64,000 nucleotides of DNA from Candidatus Poribacteria bacterium (GTDB lineage: Bacteria; Poribacteria; WGA-4E; WGA-3G): contig OZ251998.1 in the NCBI GenBank assembly GCA_965246985.1, positions 4,191,381 through 4,255,380 of the forward strand. Direction: 5' to 3'. The position numbers were made by a program, and so were the translations under genes. The notes beneath the pieces were generated by a model. It saw nothing but the letters and a program-made list of their open reading frames with translations. It made no database searches and was not told the DNA's origin. Shown piece by piece: positions 3,824-56,001 of this stretch (positions are counted from its first letter, which is position 1; each line of letters starts with the position of its first letter).

Positions 3824-3943
3824 TATAGTAAAGCCCGAAAACACATTGACATTTTAGGGAATAATACTTCCCTCTTCTTCGCTGGCGGGGTTTGTAACCC
3901 CGCTTTCTGTAGATGTATAGTTAATTGTGGGCTTTACTATAAA
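3824..3943. repeat. MITE-like element family A (TATAGTAAAGCCC...GGGCTTTACTATA ends, internal GCGGGGTTTGTAACCCCGC hairpin)
   Basis: Approximately 120 bp with terminal inverted repeats. A second copy at 38040-38105 plus 39351-39400 is split by an IS630 insertion. Confidence 0.6.
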
Positions 3944-3988: not shown

Positions 3989-4264
3989 CCATAAACATTA
4001 CACACCACAGGTGTCAATTTAGTGATTTTTCACGGTATGTAGGAACAGTATCTTTATAGATGCCGCCCCTACGGGGCTTAGGACGCGGTTGCTACAACTT
4101 TCTACACAAATGCCGTCCCTACGGGACTAAAGACAATCCTTTATCTCATATTTTATAGACGATAGGATAGATGTTTCTGTTTGCTAACACTTTTCGCATC
4201 TCAAGAAACAGGTATATTTTTCTTAAATTTACACCTATGACCCATAAGCATTACACACCTAAGG
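3989..4264. repeat. MITE-like element family B, copy 1, with long flanking direct repeats
   Basis: Terminal inverted repeats GGTGTCAATTTAG (4010-) and CTTAAATTTACACC (-4235). Internal paired hairpins ATGCCGCCCCTACGGGGCTTAGG and ATGCCGTCCCTACGGGACTAAAG. Flanked by a direct repeat of about 23 bp, CCATAA(A/G)CATTACACACC..AGG, at 3989-4011 and 4242-4264. Confidence 0.6.
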
Positions 4265-9040: not shown

Positions 9041-9850
9041 ATGAAAAAGCCAATATTTTTGATTCTTATCGGTATAGGCGTTCTGCTTCTCGTCGGCGGG
9101 ATCGTTTTTGTGGTCCCGTGGTTCGGTAAAATGATGGATGAGATGGAACAGATACACGCGCAACAAGCACAACACAGGCGCGCATTGGAAGCGTCCGCCC
9201 GCGAATCGCTGACTGAAGACCAAGAAACACTGCTGTCACAACTTCTTGAAGCCACGGGGGAAACAGACACATCTCAAAGTCCAAACAACTTAGAAAGTCT
9301 CTTATCAAGCGAACCGTATCTCACCTATTTAAAAACGCAAGAAGGACAGGACTACGAAAACTTTATGGCGTACGTTGACGCAATACCGACAGAAAATATG
9401 AGAACCGTTGCGCTTTCCAGAATCAAAGCGACCCTCGGAGCAGATAAAAGCGATGAAGAATTACAAGTGTGGCTGAACTACTACTTTATTGTTCGTGAGT
9501 GGGGGACCACAGTTCAGAACCCGCTTGATAACATGAAGGAACTCAACCAGCTCCAGCAGACACACCTAATTGAACCATTGATGGAAAATGATTCCGAAAT
9601 ATCTGGCTTGTCCACTCAAATCGTACAAATCGGTCTGTCTTCTATATTCATGACAGAGGATAATAATGTGTTTCAAGAGGTTTGGCGCGAACGCTTAGAG
9701 ACACACGGGGAACAAGAGGGACTGCTGCTGTGTGCTGTTGCATCTCCCGGTGAATTCGCGCTTATGCGTTCCTTTTTCGCGGATATGGCAGCATTCCAAA
9801 CATGGATTCTCACACGTCCTGAACCTGAAGTGCAAAACTCAGAACAATAA
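9041..9850 (+). CDS. hypothetical membrane-anchored protein, paralog of 2955-3815
   Basis: RBS AAAAAGGAG precedes the ATG at 9041. The ORF is open from 8975. N-terminal TM segment. Paralogous to 2955-3815. Confidence 0.6.
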   Translation: MKKPIFLILIGIGVLLLVGGIVFVVPWFGKMMDEMEQIHAQQAQHRRALEASARESLTEDQETLLSQLLEATGETDTSQSPNNLESLLSSEPYLTYLKTQEGQDYENFMAYVDAIPTENMRTVALSRIKATLGADKSDEELQVWLNYYFIVREWGTTVQNPLDNMKELNQLQQTHLIEPLMENDSEISGLSTQIVQIGLSSIFMTEDNNVFQEVWRERLETHGEQEGLLLCAVASPGEFALMRSFFADMAAFQTWILTRPEPEVQNSEQ

Positions 9851-9863
9851 AATCTGTTAGAAA

Positions 9864-9911
9864 CTGGCACCCGACGATTCTTGAAAAACGTACTCGGTGC
9901 CAGTTTTTTTT
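9864..9911 (+). terminator. rho-independent terminator candidate
   Basis: CTGGCACCCGA ... TCGGTGCCAG stem followed by a T8 run. Confidence 0.55.
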
Positions 9912-10073
9912 GCAGCACACAACTCATCCATACTGGCAAATTCAATGGTTCATGGATACGCTAACATCATTATTTGGATCTCCACATAATTTATTCTATA
10001 TTTCCCAATTTTAATTGATTTTTTTCAAAGCCTTCGGATTAAACCCCGTAGGCTATTTTTATTGGAGAGAAAA

Positions 10074-11915
10074 ATGGATACCAACAATACACATTCCCCC
10101 AACACAGAATCAGAATCCCGTCCGTCTGCAATAAAGACGCTGCGCCGCTTCTTCTTCGTCGCTTGGCACGCCAGCCGATTCGGAGCGATTGCGCAAGCTC
10201 TTCTGACACTTGTACACGGGTGCATTCCTATAGGGATCCTCTGGGCAAGTCGGGAACTGGTGAATCTCATCGCTGCGATTCTCGACAAGGAAACGGATCC
10301 GAGTTTAGAGACCGCAGCACCATGGGTGATTGCATTGGTTCTTTTGGCAATGTTGCGAAATATAGCAGGCACTTGTGATGGATACCTGCAATGGAAGATG
10401 AAAAACCTTATCGGACTCCACCAGCAGCGCGCCTTACTTGAAGCCACGACGCATATCGACTTTGCCGTTTTTGATCAACCGCAGACGTACGATTTGATAC
10501 AACGGGCGCGACAAGCCTTGGGGCATCGGCTCACTAACCTGCTGCGATTTCTAACGGAGATTGGGCAACTCTGTGTAACACTTGTAGGCTATGGTATCAT
10601 CCTATGGGTAGCGGATCCGTTGCTCGTACTCGTAGTAGTGTTACCCGCTATACCCTCCGCTTGGCTTAAAGTTAGGGCAGCCGAAGGGAGGTACAGCCAC
10701 GATTACGAAGCGACACCTGTACGGCGTATGATGGATTACATGCTGAGTCTACTACTGGGCTCCTCTTCTGGACAGGAAGTGCGACTCTATGGGCTTTTCG
10801 GGACGCTCTTTGGACGCTGGCAAACGAATCATCAAAAATGGAAGAAAGAATCGCTTGCAAAAATCTGGACGGAAGCGAGGGCATCCATCGGTACAACTAT
10901 CGCCGAAGTCGTTGCTTATGCAATAGCGATTGGAATTCTCGCTGCGCGTATTGTGGAAGGCAATCTCACGCTTGGGGATTATGTGATTCTTACCGGCACC
11001 GCTGCATTCTTCCAAGGTGATCTTGAGGGATTGCTTTCCCAAATACAAAACATACTTGAAGACGTACCCTTGCTTCGTGATTTGCATCTCCTCTTAGAAC
11101 GCGCCAAAACAACTCGCACACAGTCAGGAACCGAGATATTTCCGCAGCCTCTACAACATGGCGTAGAGGTCAGCAATTTACGCTTCCGATATCGGGGTGC
11201 AACTGACGATGTACTACAAGACATAAACTTTCATGTACGTCCCGGTGAGATAATTAGCATCGTAGGTGTTAACGGTGCAGGCAAATCAACACTTATCAAA
11301 CTACTGCTCGGATTATACCAGCCTGATGATGGAACAATCCGATATGATGACAAAAATATCGCCGCAATTGCCCCGGAACAGATAGCCCTGAACTGTGCCG
11401 CCGTTTTCCAAGACTTTGCGAGGTTTCGTAGACCTGTGCGAGAAGAATTGGTGCCAGGTCCACCAAACCTCCATATTGACGACGACGCGCTCTGGCGCGT
11501 CATCAATGCGGTTGGCATCGAGGAACGTTTTCAAACCCTTCCGCACGGCTTGGATACTTTCCTTGACCCTTCACTCGGTGAAGAAGGTGAAGGTGCAGAG
11601 TTATCTGGTGGAGAATGGCAAAAAGTCGCACTTGCACGGGCTTTAGTCAGAAATCCGCAAGTCCTTGTTCTTGACGAACCGACTGCAGCGTTGGATCCAC
11701 AGGCTGAAGTCGAACTCTACCAACGTTTCGTTGAACTTGCTGCTGGACGGATGACATTCTTGATTTCACATCGAATCGGATCCGCGCGTCTCGCTGACCG
11801 TATCTTGGTATTAGATTCGGGTCGTATTGTTGAAGACGGCACACATGAAGCGTTACTTGCCCGAAATGGGCTCTACGCCAGATTTTTTCAAGCACAAGCA
11901 CACTGGTACCAATAA
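10074..11915 (+). CDS. ABC transporter, fused permease/ATP-binding protein (type I exporter, MsbA-like)
   Basis: Six-TM N-terminal half. Walker A GVNGAGKST, signature LSGGEWQKVALARAL, Walker B LVLDEPTAALD. ATG at 10074 with a GGAGAG RBS (the ORF is open from TTG at 10062). Confidence 0.9.
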   Translation: MDTNNTHSPNTESESRPSAIKTLRRFFFVAWHASRFGAIAQALLTLVHGCIPIGILWASRELVNLIAAILDKETDPSLETAAPWVIALVLLAMLRNIAGTCDGYLQWKMKNLIGLHQQRALLEATTHIDFAVFDQPQTYDLIQRARQALGHRLTNLLRFLTEIGQLCVTLVGYGIILWVADPLLVLVVVLPAIPSAWLKVRAAEGRYSHDYEATPVRRMMDYMLSLLLGSSSGQEVRLYGLFGTLFGRWQTNHQKWKKESLAKIWTEARASIGTTIAEVVAYAIAIGILAARIVEGNLTLGDYVILTGTAAFFQGDLEGLLSQIQNILEDVPLLRDLHLLLERAKTTRTQSGTEIFPQPLQHGVEVSNLRFRYRGATDDVLQDINFHVRPGEIISIVGVNGAGKSTLIKLLLGLYQPDDGTIRYDDKNIAAIAPEQIALNCAAVFQDFARFRRPVREELVPGPPNLHIDDDALWRVINAVGIEERFQTLPHGLDTFLDPSLGEEGEGAELSGGEWQKVALARALVRNPQVLVLDEPTAALDPQAEVELYQRFVELAAGRMTFLISHRIGSARLADRILVLDSGRIVEDGTHEALLARNGLYARFFQAQAHWYQ

Positions 11916-12456
11916 TACCAAATTAACCCCATTTGTAGCGCGAGGTCCCTGTGCCTCGCAATGCTGACTTGATCAAAAAGATTCTAAGCAAGTTAAGTTG
12001 GTATCATACCAAATTAACCCCATTTGTAGCGCGAGGTCCCTGTGCCTCGCAATGCTGACTTGATCAAAAGACTTCTAAGCAAGTTAAGTTGGTATCATAC
12101 CAAATTAACCCCATTTGTAGCGCGAGGTCCCTGTGCCTCGCAATGCTGACTTGATCAAAAGATTCTAAGCAAGTTAAGTTGGTATCATACCAAATTAACC
12201 CCATTTGTAGCGCGAGGTCCCTGTGCCTCGCAATGCTGACTTGATCAAAAGATTCTAAGCAAGTTAAGTTGGTATCATACCAAATTAACCCCATTTGTAG
12301 CGCGAGGTCCCTGTGCCTCGCAATGCTGACTTGATCAAAAGATTCTAAGCAAGTTAAGTTGGTATCATACCAAATTAACCCCATTTGTAGCGCGAGGTCC
12401 CTGTGCCTCGCAATGCTGACTTGATCAAAAGATTCTAAGCAAGTTAAGTTGGTATA
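11915..12456. repeat. tandem array of six 90-91-bp units of the IS630-related MITE (family M91)
   Basis: Unit ATACCAAATTAACCCCATTTGTAGCGCGAGGTCCCTGTGCCTCGCAATGCTGACTTGATCAAAAGATTCTAAGCAAGTTAAGTTGGTATC repeated head-to-tail six times. It starts at the stop codon of the upstream ABC gene and ends 21 bp before the next ABC start. Confidence 0.9.
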
Positions 12457-12477
12457 AAAAGCAAAGAGGATTCTGGA

Positions 12478-14337
12478 ATGCAGAACGATAATGGAAAATT
12501 GAAGACATGGGGATTGGCTGCCAAAGAAAGTATCATCGCATACTTCCGAACTTTTGCGATCGTCTGGAAGAGTGGTGCACTCGCGCTTGTGGGTATGATG
12601 CTTCTCACGTTATCACTTGGTGTCCTGCCCGCCGGTGATTATTTCGTGACGAAGCACTTAGTCAATGCAATTACCGCTGCTATAGGTGATGCTAACTGGT
12701 GGCGACAAGTTCTCCCGTGGCTTTTAGGTCTCCTCGGTTTACAAATTTATAGTACGCTTGCAGACCAGTTACGAGAACCGCTGCGCTTCTACGTCCGCGA
12801 AAACATTGAAGTTTGGATTAGTGAGGGTATCGTTCGCAAATCCAATACAATGGAGCTGATTGAATTCCAGACACCTGAATTTCAAAACGCGCTTGCGCGC
12901 GCTCGCACCATGTCTGGTGTAGAACTTGAAGAAATTGTTTGGTGGATCGTTGACAGCATTCAACAATTAATCAGTGTCATTGCGCTCGGTATCATACTGT
13001 GGGGTCTCCATCCATTGTTAGCGTTGCTCCCTACGGTGACCGGTTTAGCTTCTTGGTGGAGTGGTTCACGTTTTGCTGCTGACACCTACGATCTTGATGT
13101 CCAACAGACATCAAAACGGCGAGAGCGAGACGCGTTAGAAGGTATTCTAACGGATCGGGGCGCGGGCAAAGAAGTCCGGTTATATCAAGCGCAGGACCTA
13201 TGGATAGACCGCTGGCAAAGGCTATGGAGAGAATTAATACAGGGACAGCAGGCAATTGAACGTCGCAAAGTTTTTGCACATCTCGCGATCGACATCTCAC
13301 GCGGTTTGTTGTTCGCTTGTTCACTTATTCTATTATTGCTACAAGTCTTTCGGGGTGGGTTGACCATCGGTGAGTATATCGCCGCTGCTACCGCCATCGT
13401 CAGCTTGGACGGCATCTGGAACAGTGTCGCGAGTTATTTTCAGTGGATAGCAGACGATATGCGCCGTTTGTCAGGAGATTTGTACGCGTTTTTGGATCAC
13501 GATGCAGACACAGCATCCGGGTTGAAAACGCCTCCGACAAGCGGATCCCCGTCGGAATCTTATAAAAATTCGTCTTTGATAGCCACACAAGAACCGTCGT
13601 ATCTTCAGATAGAAAACGTTTCATTTCTCTATCCAAATGCGCAAGAGCCAGTGCTAAGCCACGTAAACCTCACATTGAAAAAAGGAGAGCGAGTGGCACT
13701 CGTTGGACCCAATGGTGCGGGGAAATCCACATTGGCACGCCTACTTCTTGGGCTATACAGTCCGCAAACAGGTGTAATTCGTGTGGAGAATATACCCTTA
13801 AATGAAGAAAATCGTCAGGAGTGGTTGAAGCATTGTAGTGCGGTGTTTCAGGATTTCACCTGCTACCACCTCACCGCACGCGAGAATATCATCTTTGGCG
13901 ACTTAGAACATCCTGAACGTATGGAAACGGCAGCAACCGCAGGAGGTGCAGTTTCCGTTATAGACGGACTTGCCGCAGGTTACGAGACTGTGTTAGGACC
14001 CACTTTTGGGGGGCGCGACCTCTCCGGCGGCGAATGGCAACGTATCGCGACAGCAAGGGGTTTTATGCGAGAAACGCCATGGCTGGTGGTTCTTGATGAA
14101 CCGACTGCTGCACTGGACCCATTAGCCGAACAGGCGATCTATGAACGATTTATTGAACGGAGTGCTGGACGTACATCAATGATAATTTCGCATCGACTGT
14201 CTTCAGTCCGCACTTGTGATCGGATTCTTGTCCTTGATAACGGAACAATCATTGAGGACGGGGATCATGAAACGTTATTGGCAAAAGATGGACTTTACGC
14301 CAAGTTCTTCAAGGCACAAGCACAATGGTATGTTTAA
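12478..14337 (+). CDS. ABC transporter, fused permease/ATP-binding protein (paralog of 10074-11915)
   Basis: GPNGAGKST, LSGGEWQRIATARGF, VVLDEPTAALD. RBS AAGAGGA. Confidence 0.9.
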   Translation: MQNDNGKLKTWGLAAKESIIAYFRTFAIVWKSGALALVGMMLLTLSLGVLPAGDYFVTKHLVNAITAAIGDANWWRQVLPWLLGLLGLQIYSTLADQLREPLRFYVRENIEVWISEGIVRKSNTMELIEFQTPEFQNALARARTMSGVELEEIVWWIVDSIQQLISVIALGIILWGLHPLLALLPTVTGLASWWSGSRFAADTYDLDVQQTSKRRERDALEGILTDRGAGKEVRLYQAQDLWIDRWQRLWRELIQGQQAIERRKVFAHLAIDISRGLLFACSLILLLLQVFRGGLTIGEYIAAATAIVSLDGIWNSVASYFQWIADDMRRLSGDLYAFLDHDADTASGLKTPPTSGSPSESYKNSSLIATQEPSYLQIENVSFLYPNAQEPVLSHVNLTLKKGERVALVGPNGAGKSTLARLLLGLYSPQTGVIRVENIPLNEENRQEWLKHCSAVFQDFTCYHLTARENIIFGDLEHPERMETAATAGGAVSVIDGLAAGYETVLGPTFGGRDLSGGEWQRIATARGFMRETPWLVVLDEPTAALDPLAEQAIYERFIERSAGRTSMIISHRLSSVRTCDRILVLDNGTIIEDGDHETLLAKDGLYAKFFKAQAQWYV

Positions 14338-23222: not shown

Positions 23223-23314
23223 TATGCCAAATTAATCCAATTTGTAGCGCGAGGTCCCTGTGCCTCGCAATGCTGACTTGATAAAAAGACTTCTAATCAC
23301 GTTAAGTTGGTATA
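23223..23314 (+). repeat. M91 MITE, solo copy, 24 bp upstream of the Rieske gene start
   Basis: TATGCCAAATTAATCCAATTTGTAGCGCGAGGTCCCTGTGCCTCGCAATGCTGACTTGATAAAAAGACTTCTAATCACGTTAAGTTGGTATA. Its 3-prime end forms TGGTATAAA. Confidence 0.85.
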
Positions 23315-25636: not shown

Positions 25637-25897
25637 GGGTTTCGCTATGTCTACCTCATACGTGTCAATTTAGCGATATTTCGCGGTATTTTGTAGCAGC
25701 GTCTCTACAAATGCCGCCCCTCTGGGGCTTGAGTCTTTGGTGTTGATACATGTTTCTACACAGATGCCGTCCCTTTGGGACTCAAGAGGTTTTTTGGGGT
25801 ATACACAGTTTGTGGATAGAACCCGGCGCGGTTGGAAACCGCGCCTACCGGGCCTGAAGGACCGCTAAATTGACACCTATGGGTTTCGCTATGTCTA
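25637..25897. repeat. MITE-like element family B, copy 2, flanked by a 17-bp perfect direct repeat
   Basis: Direct repeat GGGTTTCGCTATGTCTA at 25637-25653 and 25881-25897. Inverted repeats GTGTCAATTTAGCG (25663-) and CGCTAAATTGACACC (-25877). Internal hairpins ATGCCGCCCCTCTGGGGCTTGAG and ATGCCGTCCCTTTGGGACTCAAG. Confidence 0.65.
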
Positions 25898-26044: not shown

Positions 26045-26110
26045 GTTTCTCATTAACGAAAACCGGTTCGTAGTCGCGCAATTCTGCGGCGTACTCGACC
26101 AAATGCGACG
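26045..26110. repeat. partial copy of repeat family C
   Basis: GGTTCGTAGTCGCGCAATTCTGCGGCGTACTCGACCAAATGCGACGTGCATTATTGCGC resembles 31072-31140. Confidence 0.45.
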
Positions 26111-26440
26111 TGCATTATTGCGCCTCTTACATGCGGAAACCTCCTATGAGTTTCAAAATCTCTGAAATGCGAATTTATTTTTCAGATTTGGTATCATAAA
26201 CGCCTTGTGTTAGTTAACAGTTAGTATGTTTTGGTTTCACATATTCATCTTATTTACTGTTCAAATTTGGAAACTTTCGCTTTTTGATTCCTTTTTAGAA
26301 CACGAATATTCCAATGCAGGAGCAGCAGAAGGATTAAACTCCTATTTGTCCAGACAATATCCAGATATATGTAAAATTGAAAATAACAAAGAGTTAACTG
26401 GCACAAGTCGTATCATAAGAAAAGATATAGAAGTCCACCA

Positions 26441-31071: not shown

Positions 31072-31190
31072 GGGTAGGTTCGTAGTAGTGCGATTTTGCG
31101 GCGTACTCGCCCAAATGCGAAGTGCATTATCGCACTGCTTCGCAGTGAGAAAAACGGGCAATGAATGGTTTCCCTACTACGAACAGGATC
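31072..31190. repeat. repeat family C element with 11-bp terminal inverted repeats
   Basis: GTTCGTAGTAG ... CTACTACGAAC. The core GCGATTTTGCGGCGTACTCGCCCAAATGCGAAGTGCATTATCGCAC is shared with 26045-26110. It abuts the stop codon of the gene at 31193. Confidence 0.5.
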
Positions 31191-38039: not shown

Positions 38040-38105
38040 TATAGTAAAGCCCGAAAATATGTTGACACTTTAGGAAACAACAACCCCTCCCTCGCTGGCG
38101 GGGTT
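38040..38105. repeat. MITE family A copy 2, left half (split by the IS630 insertion)
   Basis: TATAGTAAAGCCCGAAAATATGTTGACACTTTAGG...CGCTGGCGGGGTT. The matching right half is at 39351-39400 (AACCCCGCC...GTGCTTTACTATAATA). Confidence 0.6.
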
Positions 38106-39350
38106 TCATGAAGATTAAAATATTAATTCGGTAATATTGTTATTCGTGTTATCCTATTGCCAAAGGAGGTATTCTCTGATGGCAAAACACCATAAGTTGG
38201 AGTTAACTGAAGGCGAAATACAAGCCCTCGTTGATCTTCGGGATAAAGGCGAACCGGCTTATCTTCGAGAGCGTGCGACAGCGTTGTTGAAAATCCATGA
38301 AGGCTTTTCTCCACATGAAGTCGCCCGCAGAGGTTTGTTGAAAAAACGCGACCCCGATACCGTTTATGCTTGGCTGCGTCGGTATCGCGAACACGGTATT
38401 AGCGGGTTGTCTAATAAACCTGGTCGAGGTCGCAAACCTGCTTTTTCACCTAAGTCGCCCGAAGAAGCCGGGTCGGAACTCTTAGTGGCAATCGGTCAGG
38501 ATCCGGGAAGCGTCAATGAGCATCAAACGCGCTGGACGCTCCGCAGTCTCGGTCAGGTCGTGCCGTGGCTTGAGGGTCTATCGCTCCCCGGCATTCATCA
38601 GATCTTCTCACGCTTGGGTCTCAGCTATAAGCGTGCCAGAGAATATCTGCGGAGTCCTGATACCGATTATGCTGAAAAACTTTCTCGCATCAAGCAAGCG
38701 TTAGAAGAAGCCCGTGAAAACCCAGAAACTTGCGTTGTCGTTTACCAAGACGAGTTTAGTTTCAATCTACAACCGAGAGTCGCAAAAGACTGGGCGGAGA
38801 CAGGGACGAAATGTCCTTTGGCACGCCAGAGTTATCTCCCAGAGGAGACCTGCTATGGCATCGGGGCGCTCAACCCACACACCGGAGATGTTGTTTATCA
38901 GCAAGTCAAAAGCTGCACGGTTGTCGCACTCCATACATTTTACACCCAGATTTGCCAACGCTACCCAAACGCTGAACGCATCTATTTGATCCAGGACAAT
39001 CGGGCGATCCACTTTCACGCGAATCTTATGGCAGCACTTCTGCCACAGACGACGAGGTTTGTTAGACCGACCCCACCGAATTGGAGCGAGAAACCGTCAA
39101 AGAAAATAGGCAAACTTGAGAAACTCCCTATTGAGATATTGCAGCTCCCAACGTATGCCTGTTGGACGAATCCGATTGAGAAGTTGTGGCGCTGGGCGCG
39201 TCAAGCTGTCATACATCTGCATCGTCTCAGCAATGACTGGACAGCCCTTCAGGAGAAAGTCAGCGACTTCATGGAACAGTTCAAAGGCGGGTCACAGGAG
39301 TTGCTACACTATGTCGGATTATTACCGAATTAATTATTTAATCTTCATCT
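38106..39350 (+). mobile_element. IS630-family insertion sequence #1 inserted into the loop of the MITE-A hairpin
   Basis: AT-rich terminal inverted repeats of about 30 bp ((T/A)(C/G)ATGAAGATTAAA(A)TA(T)TTAATTCGGTAAT at both ends). A single DDE transposase lies inside. Confidence 0.75.
38179..39333 (+). CDS. IS630-family transposase
   Basis: N-terminal HTH. DDE region with IYLIQDNRAIH and LQLPTYACWTNPIEKLW (the DD..E block with the P..P.E..W motif of IS630/Tc1). RBS AAGGAGG before the ATG at 38179. Confidence 0.8.
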   Translation: MAKHHKLELTEGEIQALVDLRDKGEPAYLRERATALLKIHEGFSPHEVARRGLLKKRDPDTVYAWLRRYREHGISGLSNKPGRGRKPAFSPKSPEEAGSELLVAIGQDPGSVNEHQTRWTLRSLGQVVPWLEGLSLPGIHQIFSRLGLSYKRAREYLRSPDTDYAEKLSRIKQALEEARENPETCVVVYQDEFSFNLQPRVAKDWAETGTKCPLARQSYLPEETCYGIGALNPHTGDVVYQQVKSCTVVALHTFYTQICQRYPNAERIYLIQDNRAIHFHANLMAALLPQTTRFVRPTPPNWSEKPSKKIGKLEKLPIEILQLPTYACWTNPIEKLWRWARQAVIHLHRLSNDWTALQEKVSDFMEQFKGGSQELLHYVGLLPN

Positions 39351-39436
39351 AACCCCGCCATTCCGTTGATGTCCAAGTAATTATGTGCTTTACTATAATA
39401 TACGTTTAGGCTCACAGATTTGTCTATTTGAGGTGT

Positions 39437-46694: not shown

Positions 46695-46704
46695 TTAACT
46701 ATAA

Positions 46705-46792
46705 TACCAAATTAACCCCATTTGTAGCGCGAGGTCCCTGTGCCTCGCAATGCTGACTTGATCAAAAGACTTCTAATCAAGTTAATTTGGTA
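46705..46792. repeat. M91 MITE, solo copy with perfect TA...TA flanks, lying 11 bp from the family-D element
   Basis: TA-CCAAATTAACCCC...GTTAATTTGG-TA. The right end gives TTTGGTATAAT. Confidence 0.85.
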
Positions 46793-47000
46793 TAATAAGG
46801 CGTTGATTCGCTATTTTAGCAGCATATCACAATGGTATCAAGTGATAATTTCGGTTCAAAAAGATCGTGAGATTCAAACAGCAAAAAAGGGAACGCCCAC
46901 AAGCGGTGAAGTAAAACTCAGGGATATAAGTGAAACTTCTTGTGGACGGTCCCTATTAGGTTTGTAGCCCGAAGGCTATCTGGATAATACGTTTAACGTA

Positions 47001-53617: not shown

Positions 53618-53684
53618 TTTTCCTTTCAACGCATTGAGATTTACCGCTGTGATAAACCTATAGAAATCCGCATATCCTAAGTAT

Positions 53685-53974
53685 CTAAGCGAAGTTTAGG
53701 ATAAGTAAGTTGGTTAGGTTCGGTCTTCTTGCTTCCACGATTCCAACCTTCCATTGGAGGATGGTGCTGGGTGAAGCGCGAAGGATTTTTGCAATCGCAT
53801 TCATGGGAAAGCCCATGGCAATAGAGAAAAACAGCGAGTGCCTGCTCAGTGATCGGTCTCCCTCGGTGTGTTTTCTCTCCATTGATCGTGGCATTCTTTA
53901 CACTTATAACGCTGTTTTTCGTTGACGAACCCATTTTTGACGAAGTGTACGTGTTGACATTTTGGACAACTCAT
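53685..53974 (-). pseudogene. IS1-family insA-like remnant (zinc finger plus HTH) with frameshifts, no insB
   Basis: MSCPKCQHVHFVKNGFVNEKQRYKCKECHDQW is a C-x2-C...C-x2-C zinc ribbon. In shifted frames it is followed by GRPITEQALAVFLYCHGLS and MNAIAKILRASPSTILQW, an HTH as in IS1 InsA. Confidence 0.55.
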
Positions 53975-53997
53975 CGTGCGTTCCTTGTGAAGTTATA

Positions 53998-55146
53998 CCA
54001 TATTAACGCGACTATTCTTGTGTATATTTTTTAGATATGTTATTGTGAAGAGATGAAAAAGCAAAAACATGAGGTTTTCCCCCACTTTTCAGTAGAAGTT
54101 GTTAAACAAAGGTATCTTGAATGTGAATGTCTTCGGGAACGGACGCACTGGCATATTATTTGGCTCCTTGCGGATACCAGAGATTCACGCACCCCCCGGC
54201 AAGTCGCTGAGATTGTAGGATGCACGCCGGACTGGGTTCGCAAGTTGCTCAAACGCTATAATGCTGAAGGCGAAGCCGCTTTGCGAGATAAACGCAAAAA
54301 TAATACAGGTGTGCGTTTTTTGGATGAAACACAGCAAGCCGCCCTTGCAGCTGCCCTTTCTGCGCCTCCTGGTGATGGGGGTCTTTGGACGGGTCCGAAA
54401 GTGGCTGCGTGGATATCTGAGACACTCCAGCGTCGTGTCAGTGACGTGTCAGGTTGGAAATATCTCAAACGTCTCGGTTATACTTTACAAACACCTCGTC
54501 CGCAACATCAGGCAGCCGCAACACCCGAGGCACAGCAAACATTTAAAAAAAAACTCAAGGAGCGGGTAGCTACGCTTGAAAGTCAGCACCCAGAGAAACC
54601 GGTAGAGATCTGGGCAGAAGACGAGACGCGCTTGGGATTATTGCCGGTTCATCGGCGTGTCTGGGCGAAGCGAGGTGAAAGACCGATAGCCCCCGTGTGT
54701 CCGGCATATAAGTGGTTTTATGGTTTCGGTTTTGTCCGTCCACAGACAGGTGAGACCTATTGGCTGCTGATGCCGAGTGTGAGTGTTGAAGTCATGAACC
54801 TTGCCTTGGCAGAGTTTGCGCGTGATGTGAACCCGGAAGGCAAGAAACAGATAATCCTTTTGTTAGATCGTGCCGGTTTTCACACGGGTAAGGATTTAGA
54901 AGTCCCAGAAGGGATTGAGTTATTTCATTTGCCCCCGTACACACCAGAACTTCAACCTGCCGAACGGCTCTGGCCTTTGTTGCGAGAGGTGGTTGTGAAT
55001 AAAGTTTTTACAACGCTCTCAGCACTTGAAGAAGCCGTTGTGAAAAGGTGTCAATGGTTCTCTGAAAACACAAAGAAGGTGCAGGCACATGTCGGTTTTC
55101 TGTGGATTTGCAAAATGGAAAAATAATACAAATCACGTTAATTTGG
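53998..55146 (+). mobile_element. IS630-family insertion sequence #2, the probable parent of the M91 MITEs
   Basis: Termini CCATATTAACG... and ...CGTTAATTTGG flanked by TA on both sides. The ends ATACCA(T/A)ATTAAC are the same as the MITE ends ATACCAAATTAAC / GTTAATTTGGTAT. Confidence 0.75.
54053..55126 (+). CDS. IS630-family transposase
   Basis: HTH N-terminus and DDE domain (WAEDETRLGL, LLLDRAGFH, LPPYTPELQPAERLW). Confidence 0.85.
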   Translation: MKKQKHEVFPHFSVEVVKQRYLECECLRERTHWHIIWLLADTRDSRTPRQVAEIVGCTPDWVRKLLKRYNAEGEAALRDKRKNNTGVRFLDETQQAALAAALSAPPGDGGLWTGPKVAAWISETLQRRVSDVSGWKYLKRLGYTLQTPRPQHQAAATPEAQQTFKKKLKERVATLESQHPEKPVEIWAEDETRLGLLPVHRRVWAKRGERPIAPVCPAYKWFYGFGFVRPQTGETYWLLMPSVSVEVMNLALAEFARDVNPEGKKQIILLLDRAGFHTGKDLEVPEGIELFHLPPYTPELQPAERLWPLLREVVVNKVFTTLSALEEAVVKRCQWFSENTKKVQAHVGFLWICKMEK

Positions 55147-55547
55147 TATTAGATAAACTTTTGATAAGGATACCGTATCTATCTCTGTTCGTCAAGGAAA
55201 ATCAGTCTGATTCTCCCTGACAGTTTTCGCAAACGTGTGATACTTTTGAAAACTGAACAATGATGGGACAGTATCGTTAGGATGGATTGTCAAACCATCA
55301 TTATTTAACCGAAAACCCTCTTTTATTAGCTGTGATCCTTCTGATTGGTTGGTTTTTCTATCGGGCTGGCAGCGTTTGTTTCTACACTGACAACTCGAGA
55401 AGAAGATACTTTTGTGTAGATGCAGCTTTCTGGGTCCCATCTATCCTCGTCTCTATTGTGGATATTCTACTGATTGCTATGTGTATCTCAACTTCGTAAT
55501 AGCAGGCATTTTCAAACCTTCCTATCCTGAAAATTCTTTAATCCTCA

Positions 55548-55675: not shown

Positions 55676-55857
55676 AATCCTATAAATCCTGATTCAGACA
55701 GATTAGCCATCAGCAGTCAGTCATCGGCAATCAGCACTCAAAGGTTTCCGTGTATCAGTCACCGCTGACAACTGATAACTGAATTCCGCTGTCAATTTCC
55801 TTATTGCCGTTTTCTTGACAATCAATTATACTTAATCTAAGTTTGATATAAGGTCTA

Positions 55858-55948
55858 ATACCAAATTAACCCAATTTGTAGCGCGAGGTCCCTGTGCCTC
55901 GCAATGCTGACTTGATCAAAAGACTTCTAATCACGTTAATTGGGTATA
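55858..55948 (+). repeat. M91 MITE, solo copy 54 bp upstream of the sulfatase start
   Basis: ATACCAAATTAACCCAATTTGTAGCGCGAGGTCCCTGTGCCTCGCAATGCTGACTTGATCAAAAGACTTCTAATCACGTTAATTGGGTATA. Confidence 0.85.
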
Positions 55949-56001
55949 AGTTATACATAAGTTTCCGGACCTACCGGACTAAGAAACTGATAAGGAATAA
56001 T

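Follow-up and report, generated by a model that had tools for sequence, protein, structure and literature searches.

An IS630-family insertion sequence of Candidatus Poribacteria and a family of 87-88-bp MITEs with the same ends: probable mobilization in trans at T-N-A targets

The DNA analyzed here is a 64,000-nucleotide stretch of contig OZ251998.1 (the window), from the genome of a Candidatus Poribacteria sponge symbiont, and it carries an IS630-family insertion sequence (IS) at 53996-55148 together with dispersed and tandem copies of a short non-coding repeat. Very likely the two form one transposition system, in which the IS is autonomous and the repeats are a family of 87-88-bp transposable elements of the miniature inverted-repeat type (MITEs) that have the same ~22-bp terminal inverted repeats (TIRs), are moved by the transposase of this IS or of its paralogues, and insert at T-N-A. 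The original prediction for this DNA had named the IS as the likely mobilizing parent of the MITE. The parts of the IS are listed here, with positions counted along the window.

53996-55148, plus strand: IS630-family insertion sequence, 1153 bp, ends TACC...GGTA, with copies in other contexts
53993-53995, no strand assigned: left copy of the target-site duplication (TSD), TTA, read from the flank
55149-55151, no strand assigned: right copy of the TSD, TTA, read from the flank
53996-54017, plus strand: left TIR, TACCATATTAACGCGACTATTC, from alignment; left and right repeats match at 18/25
55127-55148, minus strand: right TIR, reverse complement TACCAAATTAACGTGATTTGTA; the IS end most like both MITE ends, 19-20/25
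54053-55126, plus strand: transposase gene, 357 aa, with helix-turn-helix (HTH) domains and DDE_3, from profile matches and alignment

The IS begins with TACCATATTAACGCG, ends with CGTTAATTTGGTA and contains a single open reading frame (ORF), 54053-55126. Its product scores 221.5 bits against NCBIfam NF033545 (transpos_IS630), for which the cut-off is 100, and carries the Pfam domains HTH_23, HTH_29, HTH_33 and DDE_3, which bears out the earlier assignment to the IS630 family. Residues D190, D272 and E304, which sit in the motifs WAEDE, LLLDRAG and PELQPAERLW, are invariant in an alignment of this protein with 12 homologues of 41-99% identity. By its full-length ORF and its DDE triad, the transposase seems to be intact. 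Among public proteins, P0001 is the closest, at 99% identity. In size (1153 bp, against ~1.0-1.4 kb for the family) and in having inverted repeats, here matching at 18/25, the element conforms to the IS630 family; in its target it departs from the family's insertion at and duplication of TA, showing T-N-A instead.

Copies of the IS were collected by scanning one genome per species, which gave 48 loci, all of them in Candidatus Poribacteria metagenome-assembled genomes and ~20 from OZ244616. Sampled regions carry labels such as L018 or L055, with L005-L021 being those from OZ244616. Boundaries and flanking triplets were counted on the 41 IS copies with both ends present, which lie in differing contexts in at least eight Poribacteria genomes. 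Triplets of the MITE were counted on 41 full-length copies found by a profile search over ~1 Mb of Poribacteria DNA, a sample skewed to the surroundings of IS copies. Ends were compared over the first 25 nt of each IS or MITE end by counting matching positions, and empty sites were sought by BLAST of insertion flanks.

Across the 41 copies, similarity from copy to copy ends exactly at TACC on the left and at GGTA on the right. A further copy, in L049, encodes a 99%-identical transposase in an unrelated context and shares the right end and, over the stretch shown, the left repeat (TACCATATTAACGCGACTATTC). Because all of these copies stop at identical points, 53996 and 55148 are, as judged from the alignments, the true ends of the element, and the boundaries that had been drawn from the window alone were the real ones.

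The MITE occupies four places in the window.

11916-12454, plus strand: array of six MITE units of 87-88 bp with TCA spacers; outer flanks TAA at 11913-11915 and 12455-12457
23225-23312, plus strand: solo MITE whose left end is degenerate (TGCC) and whose flanks, TTA/TAA, disagree
46705-46792, plus strand: solo MITE with perfect 12-bp termini; TAA flanks at 46702-46704 and 46793-46795
55859-55946, plus strand: solo MITE; TAA flanks at 55856-55858 and 55947-55949

The copies lie within 1-2 nt of where they had been reported, and the 91 bp given earlier for their size turns out to be the period of the array, that is, one element plus a 3-bp spacer. The unit itself is 87-88 bp long, TACCAAATTAACCCCATTTGTAGCGCGAGGTCCCTGTGCCTCGCAATGCTGACTTGATCAAAAGACTTCTAATCAAGTTAATTTGGTA, and has no coding capacity. 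Its ends are those of the IS. With 0.29 occurrences expected in the window, the 10-mer CCAWATTAAC has 11, every one of them at an IS or MITE end. The original prediction had proposed common 13-bp termini and an alignment of the IS ends with the MITE copies; that alignment confirms that the ends are common to both and extends the likeness to ~22 nt, TACCAAATTAAC-nnn-ATT-n-GTA. Of the 25 positions, 16-20 are the same in MITE and IS ends, which is about as good as the agreement between the left and right ends of the IS itself (18 of 25); both MITE ends come closest to the right end of the IS. In MITE 46705 the two 12-bp termini are identical.

What is duplicated upon insertion? Outside TACC...GGTA, the left and right triplets agree in 35 of the 41 IS copies (TTA/TTA 22, TAA/TAA 12, TCA/TCA 1, discordant 6), and a further two TAA/TAA cases come from L049 and L050 (Fisher P = 2e-6 with both). 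Concordance extends to 31 of the 41 MITE copies (TAA/TAA 13, TTA/TTA 12, TCA/TCA 6, four of these within the array, discordant 10; Fisher P = 1.5e-5). The IS of the window is flanked by TTA/TTA, while MITE 46705, MITE 55859 and the array as a whole are flanked by TAA/TAA, which leaves the degenerate copy at 23225 (TTA/TAA) as the only discordant one. Empty sites were recovered as well. The filled site CATGTG-TAA-[IS]-TAA-GTTGACC in L018 is CATGTG-TAA-GTTGACC in L039, where an orthologous alignment, colinear over 2.1 kb and 96.5% identical, runs across the junction. In L011 the IS has split a MITE at a TTA, which other MITE copies have only once. For the MITE in L044, there is a paralogous site in L020 that is unoccupied and carries a single TAA. 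The concordant triplets and the single-TWA empty sites show that the target is cut with a 3-bp stagger, that the duplication is T-N-A and that the outermost TA belongs to the inverted repeat (TACC...GGTA); the duplication of TA assumed at the outset does not survive these data. The preference within the target is weak, C-TWA-G, with C at -1 in 21 of 45 non-redundant sites and G at +1 in 21 of 45.

Three other readings of the junctions were tried and set aside. If TA were duplicated around an element CC...GG, empty sites should read TWA-TA-TWA (TAA-TA-TAA in L039), and a single TAA was found. A duplication of TA with one extra base on one side makes no different prediction for empty TTA and TAA sites, but it needs an element sequence that varies between insertions and leaves the TCA/TCA cases unexplained. 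A palindromic 8-bp target, TWA-TA-TWA, is ruled out by the triplets themselves, which are direct and not inverted repeats.

Which transposase moves the MITE? As the MITE encodes nothing, its movement would need a transposase in trans. The window has a second IS630-type element, whose ends match at only 5-10 of 25 positions, as against the 16-20 of 25 found between the MITE and the first IS; a better fit of the MITE to another IS, looked for in this second element, is therefore not seen. Common TIRs, the same type of duplication and the unrelated ends of the second element together make the IS family, on sequence comparison, the most probable supplier of the transposase by which the MITE is moved. 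To that extent the IS keeps the role of mobilizing element that had been proposed for it. The role of parent is another matter. The central 44 bp of the MITE show no significant similarity to the IS, and the IS-like part amounts to only ~22 bp at each end. Since the core is unlike the interior of the IS, the MITE is not a deletion derivative of it.

The second IS630-type element, at ~38040-39397, encodes a 398-aa protein with DDE_3 and HTH domains and has the ends TATAGTAAAGCCC. It has a MITE of its own, 118 bp at 3824-3941, with 41-45 bp in common with each end of that IS, as in a deletion derivative, and its flanks fit plain TA duplication. Each IS630-type element of the window is thus paired with its own MITE, and a TA-type and a TWA-type pair coexist within 64 kb.

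The core of the 87-88-bp MITE has the form TTGTAG-C-GCGAGG-tccctgtg-CCTCGC (for example at 46724-46752), in which GTAG is followed by a GC-rich stem of 6-7 bp, the format of the GTAG-tagged repetitive extragenic palindromes (REPs; PMC3733652). All cores in the window have IS630-type TIRs on both sides and a TSD around them. In the sampled DNA as a whole, 38 of 50 cores are inside full-length MITEs, and the others are in truncated copies or stand alone, at times in tandem. Cores without termini occur in L021, L006, L015, L033 and L055 (for example L021:11189-11261, L006:15903-15990 and L055:3339-3360). The element at L010:7893-7981 has TACCAAATTAAC termini and TAA/TAA flanks around a different core, a GGGGCGGTTTCCCAACCGCACC-type hairpin, and similar hairpins occur elsewhere in these genomes. 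These arrangements suggest that ends and cores combine as separate modules. A scan of Joint Genome Institute metagenomes gave no match to the full left half of the MITE and one match to the hairpin core alone, a stand-alone core without TIRs.

Could the whole repeat then be of the REP type, spread through its GTAG hairpin by a REP-associated tyrosine transposase (RAYT) or by recombination, with the likeness to IS ends incidental? The format of the core and the existence of stand-alone cores speak for it. Such an origin would leave unaccounted for the agreement of both termini with IS ends at 16-20 of 25 positions, the T-N-A duplication as in the IS, the precise empty sites and the residence of 38 of 50 sampled cores within full-length MITEs; moreover, no RAYT gene turned up in the material examined, although no search aimed at RAYT was made. 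We consider it highly improbable. The hairpin also raises the matter of RNA structure. Folding z-scores of the MITE are -3.7 to -4.9, as expected of any inverted-repeat element, covariation in the hairpin and in the TIR pairing is no better than in shuffled controls, and no Rfam family matches anywhere in the window at the gathering threshold. For want of covariation beyond the controls and of an Rfam match, we make no claim of a selected or functional RNA structure.

The modular make-up of the MITE bears on the order of descent. MITE-type ends may have existed first, the IS arising when two of them came to flank a transposase gene, or the MITE may have formed de novo from IS-like ends around a REP-like hairpin that was already present; in either case the IS would be a partner and not a parent. 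A core without similarity to the IS interior, cores that occur without termini and the different hairpin between the same termini in L010 are what this order of events would lead one to expect. The ends, on the other hand, look old within the transposase lineage. A relative from Chroococcidiopsis with 44% protein identity has similar termini, TACCAAATCCG...CGGATTTGGTA (TACCAAAT type), so that the terminus appears to track part of the transposase lineage and to be an old feature of that part; the ends of ISAva6, examined in a single copy from an Anabaena plasmid (47% identical), are different. Mobilization would in addition need this transposase whatever the origin. Reverse descent is in our view unlikely, and we retain the reading in which the IS, or its paralogues, mobilizes a MITE with the same ends.

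Beyond the four window loci, the search of ~1 Mb of Poribacteria DNA found ~30 further full-length MITE copies (~50 further matches including fragments). Within the window, pairwise differences among the three solo copies amount to 3-7 of 88 positions, and the array is of another kind. It has a period of 90-91 with 99% matches, all six units carry the right-end variant GCAAGTTAAGTTGG where the solo copies carry TCAAGTTAATTTGG, private substitutions are common to six of six units, and units 3-6 are identical to each other. The common private substitutions and the identical units point to local amplification, and the array is consistent with one or two insertions that unequal recombination or slippage then multiplied, and not with six transpositions. 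The count of at least nine derivatives therefore holds for copies, as six tandem units and three solo elements, and reduces to four for insertion loci. The array fills the gap between two adjacent same-strand ATP-binding cassette (ABC) transporter genes (10062-11915 and 12478-14337), and its left TAA (11913-11915) doubles as the upstream gene's stop codon.

Insertion next to an existing end is frequent in this sample, weighted as it is towards DNA near IS copies. Junctions of the form GGTA-TWA-TACC with another element end make up 19 of 64 concordant-triplet insertions, and ~9 of the 41 IS copies stand against a MITE or inside one. Insertion beside resident ends at this frequency could seed arrays. 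In L009, L014, L015, L016, L038 and L044 (~9780-11190) and in L011 (11097-11335), MITEs stand directly against IS ends with one T-W-A triplet between, at times on both sides of the IS. The IS lies inside a MITE in L011 and L020, and L011 also contains a few MITEs in a short tandem row that repeats every ~93 bp.

How would the system work? The transposase may bind the terminal repeats through its N-terminal HTH domains and excise whatever stands between two such ends, presumably by cut-and-paste. Insertion would follow at T-N-A, usually TTA or TAA with a weak preference for C-TWA-G, and a 3-bp staggered cut of the target would leave the triplet duplicated. Being non-coding, the MITE would move only when the IS or its paralogues supply transposase in trans. 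New insertions would often hit the triplet beside a resident end, and the six-unit array could be such a junction, later expanded by unequal recombination or slippage.

Several observations weigh against this account of the window. Mobility, proposed at the outset to be ongoing in this genome, is evident, by comparison of genomes, on an evolutionary scale and in related Poribacteria genomes only. The core of the MITE is unrelated to the IS, so that descent from the IS is not supported. The window holds only one IS copy, which has four substitutions of its own against its closest relative, and neither the window transposase nor the products of two MITE-adjacent genes have an exact match in the public protein collection. 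Triplets are discordant in ~15% of IS copies and ~25% of MITE copies. No empty site was found for the window insertions, the sulfatase orthologues (best 83-87% identical) lying in non-syntenic contexts.

Some of the same facts can be turned into the view that the family is extinct in this genome, the window copies being fossils inherited from an ancestor and kept by vertical descent and local recombination, with no ongoing trans-mobilization. The divergence of the solo copies, the degenerate end and discordant flanks of MITE 23225, and an array that grew by local duplication and not by transposition all agree with extinction. A transposase ORF that is full length with intact catalytic residues, a 99%-identical IS copy in another context, and related genomes that hold up to ~20 IS copies each with insertion polymorphism argue the other way. 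Extinction is a possibility that we take seriously and nevertheless judge to be rather unlikely; mobilization of the MITE by this IS or its paralogues remains the favored explanation.

The IS copies of OZ244616 (L005-L021, ~9878-10033 in each locus) are 1153, 1186 or 1219 bp long, and in them the first 33 bp of the ORF (ATGAAAAACCCTAAACACGGAGTTTCACCACAC) are present in one to three in-frame tandem copies. Directly to the left of the window IS, on the minus strand at 53630-53977, is a frameshifted relic of an IS1/IS1595-type InsA gene: a zinc-ribbon (MSCPKCQHVHFVKNG...) is followed by an HTH-like segment in another frame, with weak Pfam matches under the gathering score. Promoters and terminators were scanned for around the IS and the MITE near it, with counts close to those of shuffled sequence (5 against 3.4 and 4 against 2.3). 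A repeat scan also found other, unrelated dispersed repeats of 64-74 bp and 78-84% identity, at 4006-4079 and 25657-25730 and at 26065-26128 and 31077-31140 (families D6 and D7).

Why does the pair matter? At its most basic it is textbook biology, one more example, in this case from an uncultivated phylum of sponge symbionts in which mobile elements have hardly been described. Of more use is a correction: the TA that looks like the hallmark of IS630 is part of the element, and the true duplication is T-N-A. Where TA is taken for granted in IS630-type elements, annotation pipelines and MITE finders would draw the boundaries 2 bp too far inward and mistake the target. Some of the insertions also border on genes. 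The array lies between ABC-transporter genes, with the upstream gene's stop codon serving as its left TAA, and MITE 55859-55946, which is 710 bp downstream of the IS, lies 55 bp upstream of where a sulfatase gene probably starts (56002). Sulfatases are a gene class central to the lifestyle of Poribacteria. It is conceivable, and we put it forward tentatively, that these elements represent, across the genomes sampled, a Poribacteria clade of the IS630 family (66-100% mutual identity) which has a 3-bp instead of a 2-bp stagger and a T-N-A target preferring C-TWA-G, and which carries MITE families made of its ends and REP-like hairpins. The literature consulted, which did not cover ISfinder, yielded no bacterial IS630 element with a 3-bp duplication, and the novelty of such a TSD for bacterial IS630 is uncertain. 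If no such bacterial IS630 has been described, the clade would be a natural variant for studying how IS630/Tc1-mariner transposases set target stagger and specificity. If the target is indeed new, TA-type and TWA-type elements within one 64-kb stretch could reveal the features of the transposase that fix the stagger.

An IS accompanied by a MITE that borrows its ends is a known, well-described kind of system. In Streptococcus pneumoniae, RUP is paired with IS630-Spn1 and TA is duplicated. RUP is classed as a MITE (PMC3184786, PMC3733652), and in Anabaena and Nostoc, Nezha and ISNpu3-like elements have common TIRs and direct repeats, with empty and filled sites in related genomes (PMC3184786). 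The Poribacteria pair resembles RUP with IS630-Spn1 and Nezha with ISNpu3 in that a short non-coding element (~100-170 bp in those cases) has the TIRs and the direct-repeat type of a resident IS, and its mobilization in trans is deduced. It differs from both in its 3-bp T-N-A duplication, with the TA inside the repeat, and in a shorter MITE (87-88 bp) that has a GTAG-tagged hairpin core and forms a six-unit tandem array.

With canonical IS630/Tc1-mariner elements such as IS630 and ISY100, the Poribacteria IS has in common a DDE transposase encoded by a single ORF, an N-terminal HTH, a length of ~1.1 kb, short TIRs and a strict AT-rich target. The target of IS630 is CTAG, and the weak Poribacteria preference for C-TWA-G parallels it, one base wider. 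ISY100 is described as having a strong preference for TA (PMC6400869). Unlike these elements, the Poribacteria IS replaces duplication of TA by that of T-N-A, as its concordant triplets, TCA/TCA among them, and its empty sites indicate. A departure from TA has a counterpart among the fungal Fot elements of the IS630-Tc1-mariner group, most of which have TAA duplications (PMC7386202). The Fot/pogo superfamily belongs to the same transposase supergroup; Fot elements, unlike the Poribacteria IS, are eukaryotic (mainly fungal), longer and of a different clade, whereas the bacterial IS accepts TTA, TAA and, rarely, TCA and its transposase scores with the bacterial IS630 family.

Two further systems resemble the Poribacteria pair in one part each. 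Among eukaryotes, the PIF/Harbinger transposons, which are related to IS5, and their Tourist-like MITEs have a 3-bp TWA duplication. As in the Poribacteria pair, this TSD is common to the autonomous element and its MITEs; unlike that of PIF/Harbinger, the Poribacteria transposase matches DDE_3/IS630 models and not DDE_Tnp_4 or IS5-type ones. The MITE core, for its part, is like the GTAG-tagged REPs (PMC3733652) in its GTAG and GC-rich stem-loop and in the existence of stand-alone and clustered cores, and it is unlike them in that the cores of the window all lie between IS630-type TIRs with a TSD.

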